A stretch of DNA of 64,000 bases from a virus, in IMG/VR virus record IMGVR_UViG_3300025585_000040, positions 13,652 to 77,651 of that record; one strand, written 5' to 3'. Numbering within the stretch: position 1 is the first letter of the stretch; each line of letters begins with the position of its first letter. Shown here one piece after another: positions 13,433 to 48,184 of the stretch. The notes beneath the pieces were generated by a model that worked only from the letters and a program-made list of their open reading frames with translations, was not told the origin of the DNA and searched no databases. The position numbers and the translations under genes were made by a program.

Positions 13433-14323
13433 GTGCCCCTAGTGATGGATGAAAAAGTCGCAGAAATCTCGGCGAGAGGCGAAGTAGGGCGAAAAGTTTA
13501 TACAGAGTACTCTGCCGAGAAAGATTATCGGCAGTTCATGGATTATCGGTCGGATGGAGATACCCGCCTAACAATCAATGGCTCCCGTCACTACAAGACT
13601 CCCTACGGAGCACTACCTTCAGTCACGACAATCCTGTCTGCAACTGGCGGAAATAAGGCAGCATTAGAGAGGTGGGCTAAAAAAAATCCTGGTGGGAGAG
13701 AGGCTGCCGCAGCACGGGGAACCAAGGTTCACTCCCTGATGGAGGAGTATCTTCTCGGCATCAACAAGAATCCAGTCATCGAAGATGAGGAGATCGCTCA
13801 GTTCTGGAACGGTCTTCCCGAAAACCTCGATAAGCTCGGTCGCGTGATCTGGGCGGAAAATCCAGCTGGTGACGCATTCCCATGGACAATGGGAGGTGAC
13901 GGAATTAGCCGGGTTTGGCATCCAGGTGTAAAAGAAGGTGAAAATTGGGGGTGGGCAGGAGCCCCCGACATCGTGGCGGAGTACAAAAACAAAGTCGTAC
14001 TGGGAGATCTCAAGACCTCAAACGGCCCTTACTACGCAAAATGGCCCGGTCCGGACACCATCAAATCGGAGTACGGGATGAAGCGGGCTGGCTTCATGAA
14101 ATACCAAAAATGCATGATGCAGATGGGTGCGTACGCTATGGCGTTGGAGCACACAGTAGGTATCATCCCTGAAATTCTGATGATTTTCGTCGCCACGAGG
14201 GACCGTTCCCAGGTGTTCGCGGTCCAGGGCGGAACCATCGAGAAGTACAAACAGAAGTGGCTCGATGCCGTAGAGAAGTACTACAGCGAAATTCTACCCG
14301 GATTGGCGGAAGAAGACTCCTGA
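13433..14323 (+). CDS. PD-(D/E)XK exonuclease
   Basis: LPSVTTIL, RGTKVH, AGAPD...DLKTS, QMGAYA. Confidence 0.85.
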   Translation: MPLVMDEKVAEISARGEVGRKVYTEYSAEKDYRQFMDYRSDGDTRLTINGSRHYKTPYGALPSVTTILSATGGNKAALERWAKKNPGGREAAAARGTKVHSLMEEYLLGINKNPVIEDEEIAQFWNGLPENLDKLGRVIWAENPAGDAFPWTMGGDGISRVWHPGVKEGENWGWAGAPDIVAEYKNKVVLGDLKTSNGPYYAKWPGPDTIKSEYGMKRAGFMKYQKCMMQMGAYAMALEHTVGIIPEILMIFVATRDRSQVFAVQGGTIEKYKQKWLDAVEKYYSEILPGLAEEDS

Positions 14324-14464: not shown

Positions 14465-17053
14465 GTGACGACCGCTACACCCGAACCCCAACGACCACGG
14501 AAGCATCTCAAGCCGGGACAGATTGATCTCAATCTGATTCCGCCAGATTGGGGTTTAACACCGCTTAATGGTAAGCGGGCTTACGTAGCGGGCTGGACTA
14601 CCACTCCCTATACCGTCGATCAGATCAAGCAGGAGCTAGATCAGGGTCGCGCCACTGGTGTTGGCCTTTTAACGGGTCAGTGGTCTAATGAAGGCGGCCT
14701 GATTTGGGTTGATATCGATGGTCCCGACGCAATCCCTGCGTTAGAAGAACTGGCTGGTGGTTCGTTAGACGTTGTTTTCCCGCCGACACTGACGATTTCA
14801 TCCGGTAAAGAAGGCCGGATGCGGATGTTGTACAGCGTCCCGACGGCGAAGCTTCCGTTGCTGCCGGATAAGGCGACGATCAAAATCGGAATTCCGTCGT
14901 TTGAAATCCTGTTCCGCTCCAGGCAAGGTGCGGTCATGGGCGCTCACCCGGAAACAGACGGTTACTTTACGACACCACATGGCGGCTTTGAATATGCTAA
15001 GAACCCCCCCGAATTACCAGAGTGGCTGTACCAAGCTATTGCCAAGGCATTTCCAACCAACAAGTACCGTAAGCCTGTAACAGGTGGCGTCATCACCCAA
15101 CAGGTGAATCTCACCTATGAGGAAGGTTCGAAATATCAGATCGAGGAGGCTGAAAATGAGGCCAGGGTTTACCTGGAGAACCTCGATCTGGAGCGTGCTG
15201 AAGATTACGAGGAGTGGCTTGCGGTTGGCATGAGCCTCCACCAAGTCTCCGAGAACCTGCTCGAGGACTGGGTTGAGTGGTCTTCTACCGCCGATAACTT
15301 CCAAGCAGGCGTCTGCGAAGAGAAATGGCGGTCGTTTGAACGGCTGCCCGGTGGACCGAGTCCTGAGGGTGCCAGGGGTCTGCAGACTCTCCGTGCCAAA
15401 GCCAAGGAAGACGGTTTCATTGATCTTGGCGGCTTTGTTGTTGAGTCGCCAGAAGTGCTTGCGCAGAAGGCTGCTGAGCTGTTCGGTGATGACGAAGAGC
15501 CACCGATGCCACGAGGCAACTATGACTTCAACCGGAAAGTCAATCAGATGCTTGGGGGTCCTGAAGAAGACGATGAAGAAGAAGTTCGTCAACGCGTCAA
15601 CGGTAAAGGCCGTCCCAGGACTCCGCCTGCCTCGGAACTAGCCGAGACGGTCACTGTGATGATGAAGCAAAGCGGATGGTTATACGATCCAAAGTTCGAC
15701 ATCTTCATGTTTTATCAGAGTGATTCTGGTACTTGGCGACGTGAAAACCATGCAAATGAGTATAAATACGCAATTCAGGATCTTTTCCTGTTTGAAAAGA
15801 ATATACAAGTCCCTGGTGGCTTTACATCTCACCTACTGACCGATGTATGTAACCTCACGAAAGCATATCTTCTCCACGATTATTGGGACGATGACCCCGA
15901 TAAACTAGCCTTCAAGAATGGCGTTTTAGAGATCAGTACAGGTGAATTCCTGGCGCATGACCGGGAAAATTACATGACGTGGGGTCTTGATTTCAACTAT
16001 GATCCCGGTGCTGATCCCGGTCCAATTATTGAGTGGCTTCAGCGTACCCAGTATGGTGATGAGGGCCGGGTCCAAGTGTTGCGGGCCTGGCTGCGGGCCT
16101 GTTTGGTGGCACAAGGCCAGGAATTGCAGCGCTTCCTCGAAGTGATCGGTCCTGGTGGCCGAGGTAAGTCCACCTTCGCCAATCTGTGTTGCGCCATGGT
16201 TGGCAGTGGTAACTATGCCAGCACCACCCTCAACCAGTTAGAGCAGAGTCGATTTGAGGTGGCATCGATTAAGGGTAAACGGATGACGCTGATCAATGAT
16301 TCGGAGCGTTATGGCGGTTCTGCTCAGATCTTTAAGGCTTTGACTGGTGGTGACAACCTCCGTTTCGAGGAGAAAAACAAGAACGTCGGTGAACCTTTTG
16401 TGTACACCGGTATGGTCATGGTGGTGGCCAACGAACCGATTCAGACCACGGATAATACTTCTGGTTTGAGTCGCCGTCGCCTCACGATTGAATTTAATCG
16501 CCCGCTGTACGACAAGAGTTCGGAGGCCAAGGAGATGATCAAGCTCGATCAGGGCATCGTAAAGGGCTTATGGAAGCATTATTTACCCGGCTTAGTGAAC
16601 TGGGTGTTGCAGATGAGCGACGATGAAATGCGTCAGTATCTGCTCGACACCTACGAAATGGTGCCTTCGCTAAAGAGGGTACGAAATGAAATCCTCCTGA
16701 ACAGCAATAACCTCGTGGAATGGCTCCAATCGGAGATCGTTCTAGACGACAAGGCTGTTACTGCTGTCGGAAAGCGCATCCCTGCTGCTAAAGACGCCGG
16801 GGAACGGTATCACAACTCGAAGTATCATTTGTATGCCAGCTATTGCTCGTATTGCGAGGACACTGGCAGTAAACCTGTCGGCCAAAAGCGCTTCATCGCA
16901 CTGGTGATGGACTGTTGCACCAACCAGCTTGGTTTTAAAAATATTCGGAGCTTTTCTAAAGGTGGTAGGCCCTTTATCAAGGGTTTAGCTATTCGGGCTT
17001 CTGACCCCAAATATGACCGTTTTCCGACTATCTTGCCTGAAGGTAAAGAATAA
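14465..17053 (+). CDS. primase-helicase (Prim-Pol, PriCT-2, D5/SF3 helicase)
   Basis: VDIDG primase motif, YEEWLAVGMSLH PriCT-2, FKNGVL D5_N, Walker A GPGGRGKST. Confidence 0.92.
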   Translation: MTTATPEPQRPRKHLKPGQIDLNLIPPDWGLTPLNGKRAYVAGWTTTPYTVDQIKQELDQGRATGVGLLTGQWSNEGGLIWVDIDGPDAIPALEELAGGSLDVVFPPTLTISSGKEGRMRMLYSVPTAKLPLLPDKATIKIGIPSFEILFRSRQGAVMGAHPETDGYFTTPHGGFEYAKNPPELPEWLYQAIAKAFPTNKYRKPVTGGVITQQVNLTYEEGSKYQIEEAENEARVYLENLDLERAEDYEEWLAVGMSLHQVSENLLEDWVEWSSTADNFQAGVCEEKWRSFERLPGGPSPEGARGLQTLRAKAKEDGFIDLGGFVVESPEVLAQKAAELFGDDEEPPMPRGNYDFNRKVNQMLGGPEEDDEEEVRQRVNGKGRPRTPPASELAETVTVMMKQSGWLYDPKFDIFMFYQSDSGTWRRENHANEYKYAIQDLFLFEKNIQVPGGFTSHLLTDVCNLTKAYLLHDYWDDDPDKLAFKNGVLEISTGEFLAHDRENYMTWGLDFNYDPGADPGPIIEWLQRTQYGDEGRVQVLRAWLRACLVAQGQELQRFLEVIGPGGRGKSTFANLCCAMVGSGNYASTTLNQLEQSRFEVASIKGKRMTLINDSERYGGSAQIFKALTGGDNLRFEEKNKNVGEPFVYTGMVMVVANEPIQTTDNTSGLSRRRLTIEFNRPLYDKSSEAKEMIKLDQGIVKGLWKHYLPGLVNWVLQMSDDEMRQYLLDTYEMVPSLKRVRNEILLNSNNLVEWLQSEIVLDDKAVTAVGKRIPAAKDAGERYHNSKYHLYASYCSYCEDTGSKPVGQKRFIALVMDCCTNQLGFKNIRSFSKGGRPFIKGLAIRASDPKYDRFPTILPEGKE

Positions 17054-17121
17054 TTCTTGTAAAATTTAAGGGCAGCGGAGCGTCAACTCCCTGCCCAACG
17101 GTAACCACTTCTACTGGTCAC

Positions 17122-17844
17122 ATGAATAGTATAGACGGGCTCAAGACCTGCCGCAAAGGTCTGCATCAATATCCGGCGGATAAAAAGCGATGCCCAGAAT
17201 GCAGTAGGGCAAGTAGTCGGCGGTGGCGACAGAAAAATCCTGATCGGAGACAGGAGTACAACCGGCAGTGGCGAAAACAGAATCCTGATTATGATCGACT
17301 TTATTACCAGCAAAATCATGAACAGCAGCTGGAATATGATCGACGTTATCGCGAACAGAATCGTGAGCGGATGCGGGAACTAGAACGCCTTCGCTACAAG
17401 CAAAATTCGGAACAGCAACGAAAAAAGAGTCAGCAGTGGCGCCAACAGAATCCTGAGCGACAAAGAGATAACAACCGACGTTGGCGCGAGCAAAATCCAA
17501 ACTATAGTCAACAGTGGCGCGAGCAAAATCCTGATAAAACTCGCGCATACAAAAGTCGCCGTCGAGCGCTACAAAAACAAGCTGCACCTCCATGGGCAGA
17601 TTACACTGCAATCAATGCAATCTACGACGAAGCCGTACGCCTGGAAAAAGAAACAGGAATTAAATACGAAGTTGATCACATCTACCCACTTCAAAGCGAT
17701 TACATGTGCGGCTTACACGTGGAAACAAACCTTCAGATTTTAACTGTAGAGGAAAATAGATCAAAAGGTAACCGCACGTGGCCAGGTCAACTTGAGTGTC
17801 AGCGTTTATCACTTAAAGAAAATGGTTTTGATTTGATGGATTGA
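17122..17844 (+). mobile_element. free-standing HNH homing endonuclease with WRxQNP repeats
   Basis: EVDHIYPLQ...CGLHVETNLQILTVEENRSKGN; N-terminal CRKGLH...CPEC; flanked by duplicated primase C-terminus. Confidence 0.9.
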
Positions 17845-34120: not shown

Positions 34121-34204
34121 GCCACCATGCCGGAACGGTCTACGGATCGCACTTAAAATGCGTCGGGAGTTTCTCCCTTGTGGGTTCGAATCCCACTGGT
34201 GGTA
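34121..34204 (+). tRNA. trnL: tRNA-Leu(UAA), CCA not encoded
   Basis: GCCACCA/TGGTGGT acceptor, loop CTTAAAA, long variable arm, GTGGG-TTCGAAT-CCCAC. Confidence 0.92.
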
Positions 34205-45199: not shown

Positions 45200-45621
45200 T
45201 CCTCTTTGATCGGACCACCATAAAGCCAAGCATCACAGGTGCGGGCACTGGCACACTTAAATTTAAACAACTGACAATAACCGAGATCAGCACGCTCCAA
45301 AACATCCATCGGATTTGCGGCTTGCTTCTCGTTGATTCCTTCTAGGATGCACTCCAAGATTTTATTCGATTGATCAAAAGCGGCACAATTACCACACCGT
45401 GCTGTTTGTACAGTTTCTACATCTGAATTCCAAAGCTCTGCTTTTCTTTCCCAAAATCCTGGATCGGGATAATCAGGATTCAGTGGGCCGTACGCGAAAT
45501 GATCAATGGTCCAGTTACGATTCTTGGCATTCTCTTCAACATCAAGCGTCGCTTTAGGGCAGGAGGGACCAACCGCTGTAACAGTCTTATTGAGAAGAAT
45601 CGATGCCTTGGGATTTATCAC
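45196..45621 (-). CDS. Cys-rich protein with HiPIP-like motif
   Basis: CGNCAAF...GYCQLF...TCDAW. Confidence 0.6.
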   Translation of the reverse strand: MINPKASILLNKTVTAVGPSCPKATLDVEENAKNRNWTIDHFAYGPLNPDYPDPGFWERKAELWNSDVETVQTARCGNCAAFDQSNKILECILEGINEKQAANPMDVLERADLGYCQLFKFKCASARTCDAWLYGGPIKEE

Positions 45622-45968
45622 TATGCAGCCGCAACATGAAAGGTAACCGTAGCAGCAGTGCCACCAGCTTCAGAGACAAATACTGGGCGAATGAATTTTA
45701 CAGGGCGTCCGGAAACACTGAGGCTATAGGTACCATTGGCGGTGTATTGCGTACTGGCAATAATAGGCGCGAAGTTAGTACCATCAATGCTGCCCTCAAG
45801 AGAGACGTTAACACTCGTGTTAATCGAAGCAACGATAGTAATGAGGGTGTAGTTAGAAGTAGAAAAAAGATTATTCTCTGCAACTTGAATTGTGTTTCCG
45901 TTGCCGGGAGCGGTCAGCGCTGTCCCAACGTTAAAAATTGTATCTGAAAAAGTAGTGTTAACGGACAT
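45621..45968 (-). CDS. putative structural protein, paralogue of 29116..29460
   Basis: LEGSIDGTNF, EAGG. Confidence 0.6.
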   Translation of the reverse strand: MSVNTTFSDTIFNVGTALTAPGNGNTIQVAENNLFSTSNYTLITIVASINTSVNVSLEGSIDGTNFAPIIASTQYTANGTYSLSVSGRPVKFIRPVFVSEAGGTAATVTFHVAAA

Positions 45969-45999
45969 TTTGTTTTGTGCTCTGTAGTAAATTCTAGTC

Positions 46000-46275
46000 C
46001 TACTTGTTCTTCTTCTCGTATTCTTCTTTGGTCATCCACTCTTGTTCACCCCAGCGCTTCAGTGACTCCTGACCTTCGGTTTCTTCACCCCTGTAACCAC
46101 CACCTCGTTTTTTGTACGCCTGGGCGAGTAGTTGTGCTTTCCTAGCCGAATAAATTAGTTAGCCTTACGGCTACGACCACTCTCCACTCTTGCCACCTTT
46201 GGACCCACGCATGATCTGCTGTTTCAGTCGTTCACGAAGATCAGGTTTGGTATAGCGCCCTTTGTTTTCAGCCAT
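46000..46275 (-). CDS. DUF5872-like basic protein (82 aa) interrupted by a 27-nt coding gap; candidate programmed translational bypass
   Basis: Codons 1-34 MAENKGRYTKPDLRERLKQQIMRGSKGGKSGEWS, gap 46173..46147, then ARKAQLLAQAYKKRGGGYRG...NK stop; joined halves restore the family motif GxWSARKAQ. Confidence 0.8.
46147..46176 (-). other. putative ribosomal bypass element (take-off UCG, UAG hairpin, landing UCG)
   Basis: TCG TAGCC GTAA GGCTA ACTAATTTAT TCG on the - strand. Confidence 0.7.
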
Positions 46276-46873
46276 AACTACCTCTGGTTTTCAGATAATT
46301 TAAAGAGTTTTCCAATGTAATTATGCTATCACCCAATAATCCAATTCCCCGGTTACAGTTTCTGCATAAGAGTCCGCGCACATCTCCAGTTTCATGGTTG
46401 TGGTCGACGACTAAACCTTGAGTTGGCTTTGGTGGCGTACAGCAAATTGCACAGGCACCGTTTTGGGCCTCGAGCATAACCTCATACTGATCTTTAGTTA
46501 TTCCATGTCGGTGATATTTTTTATAGTCCTCGTGACACTTTCTGTCTGATTCAAGTTTTTTGTCCTTGTATTCCGGGTGTAAATCAACCCATTTACCCCA
46601 TGCGCGGGAAGAGCATTCTTTGCATTTAGACCTTAAGTACCTCTTCCCGTCTTGAACGCGATAAGAGAACTGATCCCACTGAAGAATTCTTTTGCACGCA
46701 CTACATTCCTTTTTCCCTGAGGTACCGTACAGTTCTACCAGACGGACGTGAACACTGGATTTACAGTTTCTGCAAACGGTATCGCGTCTTACAGCACCGG
46801 TCTTAGTTTTACCTTTTGAATGAAAAAGGTCGTAAGGCAGCGCTTTCTTACATTCTTTACAGGTCTTAAGCAT
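46268..46873 (-). mobile_element. Endonuclease VII-type (HNH-fold) free-standing endonuclease
   Basis: Two N-terminal CxxC...CxxC zinc ribbons; QNGACAIC...LVVDHNHETGDVRGLLCRNCNRGIG. Confidence 0.9.
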
Positions 46874-46910
46874 GCGCCTTTCGGATTTTTAAAATCCTAG
46901 CACAAAAAGC

Positions 46911-47561
46911 TCAAGTCATTAATTGTTGATTTTGGCCAAATGCCGAAGTTAGAAGTGCAGCAGGATCAATCATTGATTTAATCTGCGGCTGCTGAGAGAT
47001 TAAAGAATTTTGAATATAAGACGAAAGGAAATCAGCCCCTGGCTCCTCTTCTTTCTTTTTACGTCCACCCATAACGTAAATATAAGTATCTCCGCCTTGA
47101 GTAGATGCTTGCGGAGGAGATTGAGCTACGGATTCTGCTGGCTTACCTCCTTTCGTATGGAGAAGACGAATCTCGTAAGGCTTACCCTCAATATCCGTAG
47201 TTTTAATCGTACCGTAGCCTTTCCCAGGGGTGAATGTGCCTGGACCTTCCCAAGTCAGTGGAGTCTTAGCGGCGATTGCATAATCTTGCCCCATGTGTTG
47301 AGTCGAGGCTCCAGCTGTTGGGGCTGTACGTTTGCCGAAGGGAGAAGTAATTGTGAAGCTTGGCTTCCATTCCTCTCCCTGTTGCTGCCAAAGTGCCTTC
47401 TGCTCTTTACCTACCTTCAATCGGGTTAGAAGTGAGCGTATAGTACCTGGATCAATATACTTACCGTCCTTTAGTACACGGACATCCAGGTGCGGTCCTG
47501 TGGTGGGGAAAATATCCTCACCAGGGGCAGCAACGTAACCTACGTCCAGCCGTGAAGTCAC
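46911..47561 (-). CDS. M23 peptidase-like protein, apparently circularly permuted
   Basis: TTGPHLD...IDP precedes ITSPFGKR...HMGQD. Confidence 0.65.
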   Translation of the reverse strand: MTSRLDVGYVAAPGEDIFPTTGPHLDVRVLKDGKYIDPGTIRSLLTRLKVGKEQKALWQQQGEEWKPSFTITSPFGKRTAPTAGASTQHMGQDYAIAAKTPLTWEGPGTFTPGKGYGTIKTTDIEGKPYEIRLLHTKGGKPAESVAQSPPQASTQGGDTYIYVMGGRKKKEEEPGADFLSSYIQNSLISQQPQIKSMIDPAALLTSAFGQNQQLMT

Positions 47562-48184
47562 TACTGTTCTCCTCCAAGGTAGTTAGGAGTTTGGAACATT
47601 GCCTGTGTCAAAACAGACACAGGATCGAAGCCAGTGTCAATCTTCTTCGGTGCACGTTCCACTAAAGAAGCTAAATTCTGTAAGCCATCGAATCCTGGCT
47701 TGAACTTATCTGTATAACCGCGTAAAAAATCAAGTCCTGGATCTTCACCATAAATGATGTACGTATTTCCTTTCGGACCTGCTGCAACTCGTTCAGGCTT
47801 TTGCGTCGGTTGCTGCTGTCCTAGTTGTTGAACCGCTTGTTGAGCTTGAGGAAGAAACTCTTTGTATTTGCCGCTTTTATAGACAGACCAAGCGCCGAGA
47901 CCTTGGCTACCTAATATGCCCTTAGCGGCACGTACGTTTGTCGCAGGATCAAAAAGCTCTTGTTCGCTTTTTAAACCAAATTGCTTCATCCGCGCTGGAC
48001 CAAGCCCACCGTACATGTTCACTTGGAATAAACCGTACGATTTATCTAAGCCACGGGGATTAAAAGCTTGTGGACGGCCACCTGATTCCGCCAAAGCAAT
48101 GGCAGTCATCGTAGGGATCTTTTCTTTATCAAATCCCTGTTGCTGAAGCAGAGATGCGATTTCTTGAGCTTTGAGTTGTGCCAC
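47561..48184 (-). CDS. lytic transglycosylase (SLT-like) virion protein
   Basis: AIALAESGG, SYGLFQVN, DPATNVRAA, AWSVY; GTG start chosen to avoid overlap. Confidence 0.8.
   Translation of the reverse strand: MAQLKAQEIASLLQQQGFDKEKIPTMTAIALAESGGRPQAFNPRGLDKSYGLFQVNMYGGLGPARMKQFGLKSEQELFDPATNVRAAKGILGSQGLGAWSVYKSGKYKEFLPQAQQAVQQLGQQQPTQKPERVAAGPKGNTYIIYGEDPGLDFLRGYTDKFKPGFDGLQNLASLVERAPKKIDTGFDPVSVLTQAMFQTPNYLGGEQ

Follow-up and report, generated by a model that had tools for sequence, protein, structure and literature searches.

The 64,000-nucleotide (nt) stretch of DNA that we analysed (the window; positions 13,652 to 77,651 of IMG/VR virus record IMGVR_UViG_3300025585_000040, from an uncultured freshwater phage) carries a nuclease gene followed by a small gene whose reading frame is broken by a 27-nt gap. 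We consider it probable that the whole arrangement is one mobile homing cassette, made up of a leader, the nuclease gene, 34 replacement codons for the small gene and the gap, in which the nuclease would cut uninterrupted alleles, the carrier would be immune to that cut, and ribosomes would hop over the gap. Three lines of evidence identify the nuclease, the replacement 5' half and the gap as one mobile element, namely their linkage, the site of insertion and pairs of near-identical phages with and without the insertion. These comparisons show that the block enters the small gene at its Trp-Ser codons, travels between diverged phages as a unit, and afterwards sheds its nuclease but not the gap.

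All cassette features lie on the minus strand of the window. The initial annotation had placed an Endo VII-type gene at 46268..46873, overlapping the interrupted gene by 8 nt and lying about 95 nt from the gap, and all of these coordinates hold.

46874..46910, minus strand: cassette left end and leader, after the upstream-gene stop TGA (46913-46911) plus GC
46268..46873, minus strand: homing-endonuclease gene, 201 amino acids plus TGA, with a PF02945 match
46174..46275, minus strand: 34 codons (MAENKGRY...GEWS) that the cassette supplies to replace the 5' half of the small gene
46147..46173, minus strand: coding gap of 27 nt, TAG CCG TAA GGC TAA CTA ATT TAT TCG
46105..46146, minus strand: donor-type tract ARKAQLLAQAYKKR, 3' of the landing codon, ending at the GGT GGT GGT (GGGY) codons
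46000..46146, minus strand: 3' half of the small gene, GCT AGG AAA..., 48 stop-free codons, then TAG (46002-46000)

The leader carries the motif TTTTTGTGCTAGG (46908-46896), a match to the left end TTTTGTGCTAT that about 28 related cassettes conserve, and, ahead of the nuclease ATG, a small hairpin (GGATTTT/AAAATCC, 46898-46884); the host-gene remnant that precedes this left end elsewhere is missing from the window copy. The nuclease and small-gene open reading frames (ORFs) overlap in the 8 nt ATGGCTGA (46275-46268), with the small-gene ATG at 46275-46273, and the last of the 34 codons read GAG TGG TCG. The gap starts 95 nt past the nuclease stop and contains three in-frame stops. We designate the UCG at 46176-46174 the take-off codon and the UCG at 46149-46147 the landing codon; between them lie a UAG stop (46173-46171), which opens the hairpin UAGCC-GUAA-GGCUA (46173-46160), and an AU-rich spacer, ACUAAUUUAU (46159-46150). 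The landing codon sets the frame of the small gene's 3' half. Four independent public runs, from four studies (2017-2025), gave contigs that span the gap without an indel or any difference inside it, and since four independent assemblies agree, the gap is not an assembly error. None of the public runs listed as containing the locus is an RNA run.

Both halves of the small gene fit a single profile, PHROG 17747, the N half at positions 14-44 and the C half at positions 44-63 (E-values for the two halves, 2e-9 and 2e-6). Because the halves abut on the profile, the gap is a clean insertion relative to the family. Uninterrupted relatives run ...G(E/Q)WSARKAQ... unbroken, and cultured phage S-EIVl has an uninterrupted allele. 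The target is a DUF5872-like gene of 77-94 amino acids; against the DUF5872 (PF19197) cut-off of 27.5 bits, uninterrupted relatives score 25.7 and 21.3 bits and the window C half 20.8 bits.

Linkage, insertion site and mobility

A pattern scan of IMG/VR followed by screening yielded 46 gap-bearing alleles, and a nuclease-anchored scan yielded three more. Co-occurrence of nuclease and gap had been set beforehand as a test by the initial annotation, and the outcome was clear: a clade nuclease with readable downstream sequence was followed by a gap-bearing allele in 36/36 cases in IMG/VR and in 55/55 metagenome contigs, while no nuclease homolog was found within the fetched flanks (up to 3 kb) of the 80 uninterrupted alleles among the best 80 of about 350 small-gene relatives plus S-EIVl. 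The state of the nuclease in the 49 IMG/VR carriers was as follows.

Full-length nuclease: 34-35 carriers
Nuclease cut by the contig end: 3 carriers
Last 19-64 codons only, fused to the small-gene ATG: 8 carriers
No recognisable remnant, cassette-type N-terminus kept: 3 carriers

Because eight carriers keep a nuclease stump and three keep a cassette-type N-terminus, no gap is found free of the cassette. Most gap alleles that lack the nuclease are deletion derivatives that retain its 3' end, and one carrier (L123) has an internal deletion from the leader to the middle of the nuclease ORF. The nuclease thus decays after arrival with the gap being kept, like the MobA element of T4-type phages.

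Mobility was judged from pairwise near-isogenic contrasts. The flanks of carriers and cassette-free phages are 98.8% (L091/L271), 99.4% (L101/L282) and 99.2% (L123/L222) identical in the closest pairs, 92-93% identical between L170 and L218 or L221, and 89% identical in L155/L227. Conversely, cassettes that are 85-95% identical over about 750 nt sit in flanks that are unalignable or at most 75% identical over small fractions, and two different backbone types hold near-identical nucleases. Taken together, these pairs bear out the earlier proposal that the nuclease spreads with the gap as a mobile unit.

The insertion site could be mapped from about 28 carriers that still have, upstream of the nuclease, the small-gene 5' half native to their backbone. 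This host remnant ends in ...KGGKPGQ, then T(G/A)A, and is followed by TTTTGTGCTAT...AGCACAAA...nuclease ATG. The remnants are backbone-specific, with several N-terminal types, and as far as the junction they are 94-100% identical to the native half in the nearest cassette-free phage. The replacement half is cassette-specific, and near the junction only about 58% of it is identical to the uninterrupted consensus. The break in the host copy thus falls at the W codon; in the new copy the gap comes 6 nt later, after the W-S codons. This mapping supports the predicted site near WSARK, the break in the host 5' half lying two codons before the gap site. On this mapping the gap is the final 23-33 nt of one contiguous insertion. 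The initial annotation had the cassette adjoining the small gene, which describes the window copy, where the host remnant has been lost; in most relatives the cassette lies inside the small gene and brings a replacement 5' half.

In clade-B carriers, the larger of two nuclease clades (e.g. L110 and L093), a conserved inverted repeat, TTTGTGCT-N10-AGCACAAA, directly follows the host-remnant stop and lies about 10 nt ahead of the nuclease start. It is possibly a regulator of nuclease expression, a terminator or an end of the element.

On the 3' side, the donor-type sequence continues past the gap for a variable distance: in seven pairs, about 30, 45, 45, 75, 90, 105 and >130 nt are passed before near-identity returns. 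A variable tract of this kind is what co-conversion leaves behind when a break is repaired, and it hints that the break may lie 3' of the insertion point. The boundary in L091/L271 is the same as that in the window (the GGGY codons), where the tract 46105..46146 is diverged from cassette-free relatives. We infer that the nuclease cleaves uninterrupted alleles within the stretch of roughly 80 nt that separates the W-S codons from the GGGY codons. In a mixed infection, repair templated by a genome with the cassette would then copy the cassette in, with varying co-conversion of the 3' flank. A carrier would be immune because neither target copy is intact, the host remnant ending at the W codon and the new copy being both gap-split and recoded, so that protection would come from the gap plus the recoding.

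Nuclease and gap might instead be linked by another logic, with the nuclease targeting a different site and the gap serving as a regulatory attenuator that controls how much of the small protein is made. The recoded flanks (58% identity to the uninterrupted consensus) might alone give immunity, and what bypassing does for T4 besides immunity is still under debate (bioRxiv 10.1101/2022.08.31.505936). We nevertheless regard this alternative as improbable, since the cut in the host copy falls at the W codon, directly ahead of the W-S codons after which the gap stands in the new copy, since the gap is never found without traces of the cassette, and since the donor-type tract always reaches 3' of the gap, as expected for a break there.

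The window copy itself was compared with its closest relatives, with and without a cassette, using the two backbone genes that flank it.

46911..47561, minus strand: upstream backbone gene (left flank), 216 amino acids, weak endolysin-like matches
45621..45968, minus strand: downstream backbone gene (right flank), 115 amino acids, function unknown

At the protein level, the upstream gene is 84-89% identical to cassette-free L068/L074 and 49-67% to carriers L002/L078, and the downstream gene is 98% identical to cassette-free L074/L076 and 63-70% to carriers L078/L002; overall, the flanking genes are 84-98% identical to the cassette-free loci (L068/L074/L076) versus 33-70% to the carriers (L002/L078). 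The cassette shows the opposite affinity. From the nuclease to about 46105 the window is closest to L078/L002, the replacement 5' half being 75-87% identical to these carriers versus 43-48% to the otherwise closest cassette-free locus, L074, and identity to L074 climbs from 0.43-0.60 to 0.80-0.87 at about 46100. The window is thus a mosaic, its backbone being L074/L068-like and its cassette L078/L002-like. Because the flanks are nearer to cassette-free loci and the cassette nearer to carriers, at least one transfer or replacement is required.

Several points weigh against the mobile-cassette reading. The collections that we searched overlap and include redundant populations, and the small-gene relatives inspected were the best 80 of about 350. 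Cleavage, immunity and hopping are all deduced from sequence comparison. The window nuclease clade (clade A: the window, L002 and L078), which is small and older, offers no near-isogenic cassette-free partner, the best cassette-free flanks being only 78-81% identical to the window; its nucleases are merely 67-69% identical to one another, and the window copy has no host remnant. With no near-isogenic partner and with nucleases this diverged, recent movement of the window copy is not shown. The same three observations would fit a resident relic, in which an ancient entry was followed by vertical inheritance, the nuclease serves another role or is slowly decaying, and the gap is a frozen scar without a current role in immunity. 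The mosaic of cassette-free-like flanks and carrier-like cassette, with the transfer or replacement that it requires, speaks against such a history, as do the purifying selection on the nuclease (ratio of nonsynonymous to synonymous polymorphism, pN/pS, 0.28) and the clearly recent mobility of sister clade B, and we therefore think it unlikely that the window cassette is a relic.

The gap family and its candidate hop signal

The 49 IMG/VR carriers contain 21 distinct gaps with lengths of 23, 24, 27, 28, 29 or 33 nt, and metagenome contigs add lengths of 26 and 32 nt. There are stops in every gap and many gap lengths are not multiples of 3, yet the invariant WSARK motif is restored exactly in the joined protein at every gap length. 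The take-off codon is TCG, followed by TAG, in all carriers, and the landing codon is TCG in 48/49 IMG/VR carriers (one TCT) and in 51/55 metagenome carriers (TCT in 2, TCA in 2). The stem TAGCC/GGCTA is present in 36/37 IMG/VR and 55/55 metagenome alleles that were located via the nuclease, with the hairpin unused in the search. It encloses loops of GTAA, GTGA, GGGA, GCAA, GAAA or GAGA, all of the GNRA type, and twice TTAG, and is followed by spacers of 73-100% A+T with natural lengths of 6-16 nt. UCG/UCG, the UAG stop and the UAGCC-GNRA-GGCUA hairpin are found in 48/49 IMG/VR carriers. In the T4 record, GAT GGA TAGCC-TTCG-GGCTA TC, the stop and the 5-bp stem are identical to these and the tetraloop is a different one.

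The choice of serine codon can be compared between the two kinds of allele. At 55 distinct uninterrupted sites the same serine is encoded by all six codons, with TCG in only 6/55. In carriers, by comparison, both TCG codons are fixed while neighbouring synonymous sites are near saturation (synonymous polymorphism, pS, 0.7-0.8). Both halves of the interrupted gene are also under selection: pN/pS is 0.26 for the replacement 5' half (41 unique copies), and the frame 3' of the landing codon is intact in 49/49 carriers with a pN/pS of 0.22, or 0.23 for the first 16 codons past landing, which are cassette-borne.

The simplest reading of this pattern is that translation crosses the gap by UCG take-off and UCG landing, and in the window ribosomes most likely hop over the 27-nt untranslatable gap. 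With peptidyl-tRNA-Ser on UCG and UAG in the A site at the base of the UAGCC-GNRA-GGCUA hairpin, the ribosome would take off, re-pair at the next UCG 27 nt downstream and complete the full-length protein, as in T4 gene 60. There is no tRNA-Ser gene within the window, so the hopping tRNA would be supplied by the host. The window carries a single tRNA-Leu gene (anticodon TAA), at 34121-34204.

Three other ways of crossing the gap were considered. Stop-codon reassignment or read-through is ruled out, as TAG is accompanied in the gap by TAA or TGA and the frame is shifted by many of the gaps. A single frameshift is ruled out because the one frame that is stop-free in most gaps fails to rejoin the downstream frame. 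Finally, an intron is improbable, as at 23-33 nt the gaps are far below the size of any self-splicing intron.

Some features of the family are nonetheless less favourable to hopping. A mini Shine-Dalgarno (SD) sequence, which the gene 60 family has, is absent: 0/21 distinct spacers contain GAG, GGA, AGG or GGG. Single-sequence folding returned the expected hairpin, but with energies not significantly below those of shuffled sequences (z -1.65 to +0.38), and the hairpin stem never varies, so that covariation lends it no support. One carrier with a full nuclease (L170:3100-3250) has a 24-nt gap with a degenerate hairpin, TAGCT-ATAA-TATTA, but retains both TCG codons and the frame downstream of them; the hairpin may not be needed, or this copy may be failing. 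Lastly, the landing codon is TCT or TCA in L084 and in four of the metagenome loci L286-L351. These codons would be readable by a U34 tRNA-Ser and not by a CGA anticodon, and they therefore bear on which tRNA hops.

If the gap were not hopped, the gene would yield two peptides, the first 34 residues only, or a re-initiated 3' half, and the gap would merely break the nuclease target. The lack of an SD-like landing aid would fit such an outcome, and the gene family does tolerate a split into two ORFs (in L003, with a related nuclease, and in phage CRP-9). We consider it quite unlikely all the same, because take-off and landing are held at TCG amid saturated synonymous neighbours when uninterrupted alleles use six Ser codons, because the stop-plus-hairpin core is the same as in the proven T4 signal, and because the joined protein restores WSARK exactly in every gap length. 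Nor would re-initiation be helped by a conserved start codon near the landing site, as there is none among the alleles compared.

The two split genes are of interest in their own right. In L003:998-1882 (IMG/VR 3300025889_004093), a distant Endo VII-type nuclease (37% identity, 153 amino acids) divides a longer DUF5872-type gene into two ORFs just past the GGGY codons, with an 8-nt overlap at the nuclease start; the gap is absent and the WSA site uninterrupted. L003 represents the split-gene solution in the same DUF5872-like gene family. In Roseobacter phage CRP-9 (L203:1860-2629, gp67/gp66), a DUF5872-type gene exists as two overlapping ORFs split at the GGGY point (...GGGYKS* / MKAPQKSLKKW...), with no nuclease there, and this split could be a hit-and-run scar or a frameshift site.

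A separate observation concerns record 20 of run X7, a 13.3-kb contig at about 183x depth from a 2023 freshwater sample. It matches only the take-off and hairpin stretch and goes on TCG GCA AGA AAA GCT CAG, and is a different, very abundant cassette carrier.

The nuclease and its family

The nuclease matches Pfam Endonuclease_7 (PF02945) over residues 122-195 with 81 bits (cut-off 23.6; E 6e-23). Its first 110 residues contain paired CxxC motifs and its C-terminus the Endo VII domain (DHHRN, beta-beta-alpha-Me). In alignments of 3 and 8 nucleases, D157, H158, H160, R166 and N174, the DHHRN residue set as named in PMC6083498, are invariant, and so is a Cys4 zinc site (C141, C144, C170, C173). 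Over query residues 43-196 the nuclease is 39% identical (E 1.8e-18) to F-CphI of cyanophage S-PM2, and this match coincides with the annotated F-CphI gene adjoining the intron-containing psbA. Among near-identical phages the nuclease is optional, and it always stands beside a gap-bearing allele. On these grounds the nuclease is a member of the known F-CphI ('DHHRN') family of homing endonucleases. The first label, Endo VII-type, was right as to the PF02945 motif and is made more exact by this assignment. Purifying selection acts on the nuclease ORFs of both the window's clade A (pN/pS 0.28) and the large clade B (0.16). In the searches themselves, a single-sequence nuclease scan passed over the carrier L078, which a profile scan recovered.

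F-CphI is a biochemically characterised homing endonuclease, and the psbA intron protects its own genome from the enzyme, an arrangement called 'collaborative homing' (PMC6083498). The window cassette resembles this pair of F-CphI and the psbA group I intron of S-PM2 in that the nuclease family is shared, the free-standing nuclease adjoins its target gene, and a separate insertion in the target is carried along, which prevents self-cleavage there and would do so here. It differs in that a self-splicing intron is removed from the RNA there, whereas a 27-nt gap is to be skipped in translation here, and in that the nuclease has about 50 extra N-terminal residues with CxxC pairs. The best solved relative over the full length, by both profile and fold, is the sequence-specific Hpy99I (PDB 3fc3; profile E 4e-10; Foldseek E 4e-5 over about 155 aligned columns), which is of equal length and likewise has a Cys-rich N-terminal part followed by a C-terminal beta-beta-alpha-Me domain. 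Hpy99I is, however, a bacterial restriction enzyme paired with a methylase and not a mobile phage gene, and a different arrangement of the domains in the model keeps the TM-scores low (0.29).

The Pfam family is named 'Recombination endonuclease VII', and the nuclease is the sole PF02945 match in the window's viral contig, both of which would suit a phage Holliday-junction resolvase (a T4 gene 49-like housekeeping enzyme) that merely adjoins the interrupted gene. We give this reading next to no credence. The gene is missing from the nearest relatives and from the 80 uninterrupted-allele loci, is inserted inside a gene, and is reduced to stumps in several carriers. Furthermore, its Endo VII motif lies at the C-terminus, and proteins with the motif in that position form, with Hpy99I, an endonuclease clade apart from the resolvases (PMC6083498); in agreement with this, T4 Endo VII aligns with the core of the nuclease only, and F-CphI and Hpy99I are nearer to it.

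No likeness to MobA was detectable when the nuclease was compared with the intact MobA of phage HY03 (BLASTP E 0.35; Pfam), which has a weak HNH motif at its N-terminus. Among cultured phages we found no close nuclease (best at most 38% identity) and no gap-bearing allele, and a nucleotide search of cultured phages with window positions 45600-47600 gave no match.

Two features outside the small gene were also noted. At window positions 14465-17844, an 862-amino-acid primase-helicase-like ORF terminates at 17053 with ...DRFPTILPEGKE*, and after it comes a 240-amino-acid HNH-type ORF (17122-17844). In nine viral contigs that came up as pattern-scan matches (L081, L083, L092, L096, L113, L130, L141, L156 and L158), an unrelated conserved palindrome, TGGTCCTAGCCC(T/A)(A/T)GGGCTAACC, lies near a homolog of a lysozyme-like (SLT) gene.

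Comparison with the MobA element and significance

The closest parallel is the MobA-gene 60 mobile element (Bonocora et al. 2011, as cited in bioRxiv 10.1101/2022.08.31.505936). That element consists of a nuclease gene, an N-terminal extension overlapping the nuclease ORF by 8-32 nt, a homologous region and a bypass sequence at the end of the insert; it has inserted repeatedly at one site, near-identical genomes occur with and without it, and the nuclease can be lost with the bypass retained (bioRxiv 10.1101/2022.08.31.505936). The only place where it was found is the topoisomerase II large-subunit gene of myoviruses, and the cassette was called unique (Manning & Atkins 2022, bioRxiv 10.1101/2022.08.31.505936).

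The likeness to the window cassette is extensive. Both have a free-standing nuclease within a gene, a downstream ORF that starts inside the nuclease 3' end (8 nt here, 8-32 nt there), homologous codons brought by the element to replace those displaced, and a non-coding gap that forms the element's 3' end. Both have matched take-off and landing codons, UAG after take-off and an AU-rich spacer, and the hairpin core UAGCC-tetraloop-GGCUA is identical when the T4 sequence is compared. Both are present or absent among near-identical phages and show decay of the nuclease with the gap kept. The differences are equally plain. The target is a DUF5872-like gene here and the topoisomerase II large subunit there; the nuclease is of the F-CphI type with a C-terminal Endo VII motif rather than a MobA-type HNH enzyme; the codon is UCG instead of GGA/GAC; the gap is 23-33 nt, compared with about 50 nt (20 in one clade); the loops are GNRA where the others are mostly UUCG, and the mini-SD is absent; and the phages are uncultured, from fresh and marine waters and probably cyanobacterial, in contrast to gamma-proteobacterial myoviruses. 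Judged by its architecture, the cassette would work like the MobA-gene 60 element; by homology it is not a member of that family. The initial annotation had called it an independent version, which stands as far as nuclease, target gene, codon and gap length are concerned but is unsettled for the hop signal, as the hairpin core is the same as that of T4.

Homing nucleases can also reside in coding sequence by other means. MobE-type insertions in phage Aeh1 split nrdA into two ORFs with added tails (bioRxiv 10.1101/2022.08.31.505936). As in the window cassette, a homing nuclease sits in a coding sequence without an intron or intein and cassette-supplied ends rescue the host function, the difference being that two protein chains are made and nothing is bypassed. 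In the literature that we searched, we found no description of the present nuclease-plus-gap element; the arrangement is described only for the T4 gene 60 family.

Byp elements in the mitochondria of Magnusiomyces capitatus are short non-coding inserts in coding regions that are skipped between matching codons and are thought to be mobile. They differ in being mitochondrial, in occurring by the dozen in a genome, in having no known nuclease gene alongside, and in their signals.

Programmed hopping in bacteria and phages has so far rested on one natural system, T4 gene 60 and its topoisomerase-gene homologs. The locus described here would be a second natural family, with at least 21 distinct gap variants and about 100 instances. 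For the study of recoding, it would provide a natural mutational series (different loops, spacers of 6-16 nt, no SD) from which the needs of take-off and landing may be read. For mobile DNA, it would make 'nuclease plus bypass' a recurrent way for a homing endonuclease to live in coding sequence and shield its own genome, beside introns, inteins and split genes, and would link the bypass strategy to the F-CphI family, in which collaborative homing with an intron is established. In annotation, such genes are currently called as two fragments or overlooked. We further entertain, tentatively and with more doubt than confidence, the idea that the hop signal, made up of a stop codon at the foot of a UAGCC-tetraloop-GGCUA hairpin, an AU-rich spacer and a matching landing codon, is a portable module captured by unrelated homing nucleases, which could then invade coding sequence with neither intron nor intein, and shared with T4 gene 60 by descent or exchange. 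If this were true, ribosome hopping would be a general, repeatedly used phage solution and not a T4 curiosity, and the short, SD-less versions of 23-33 nt would define its minimal requirements.

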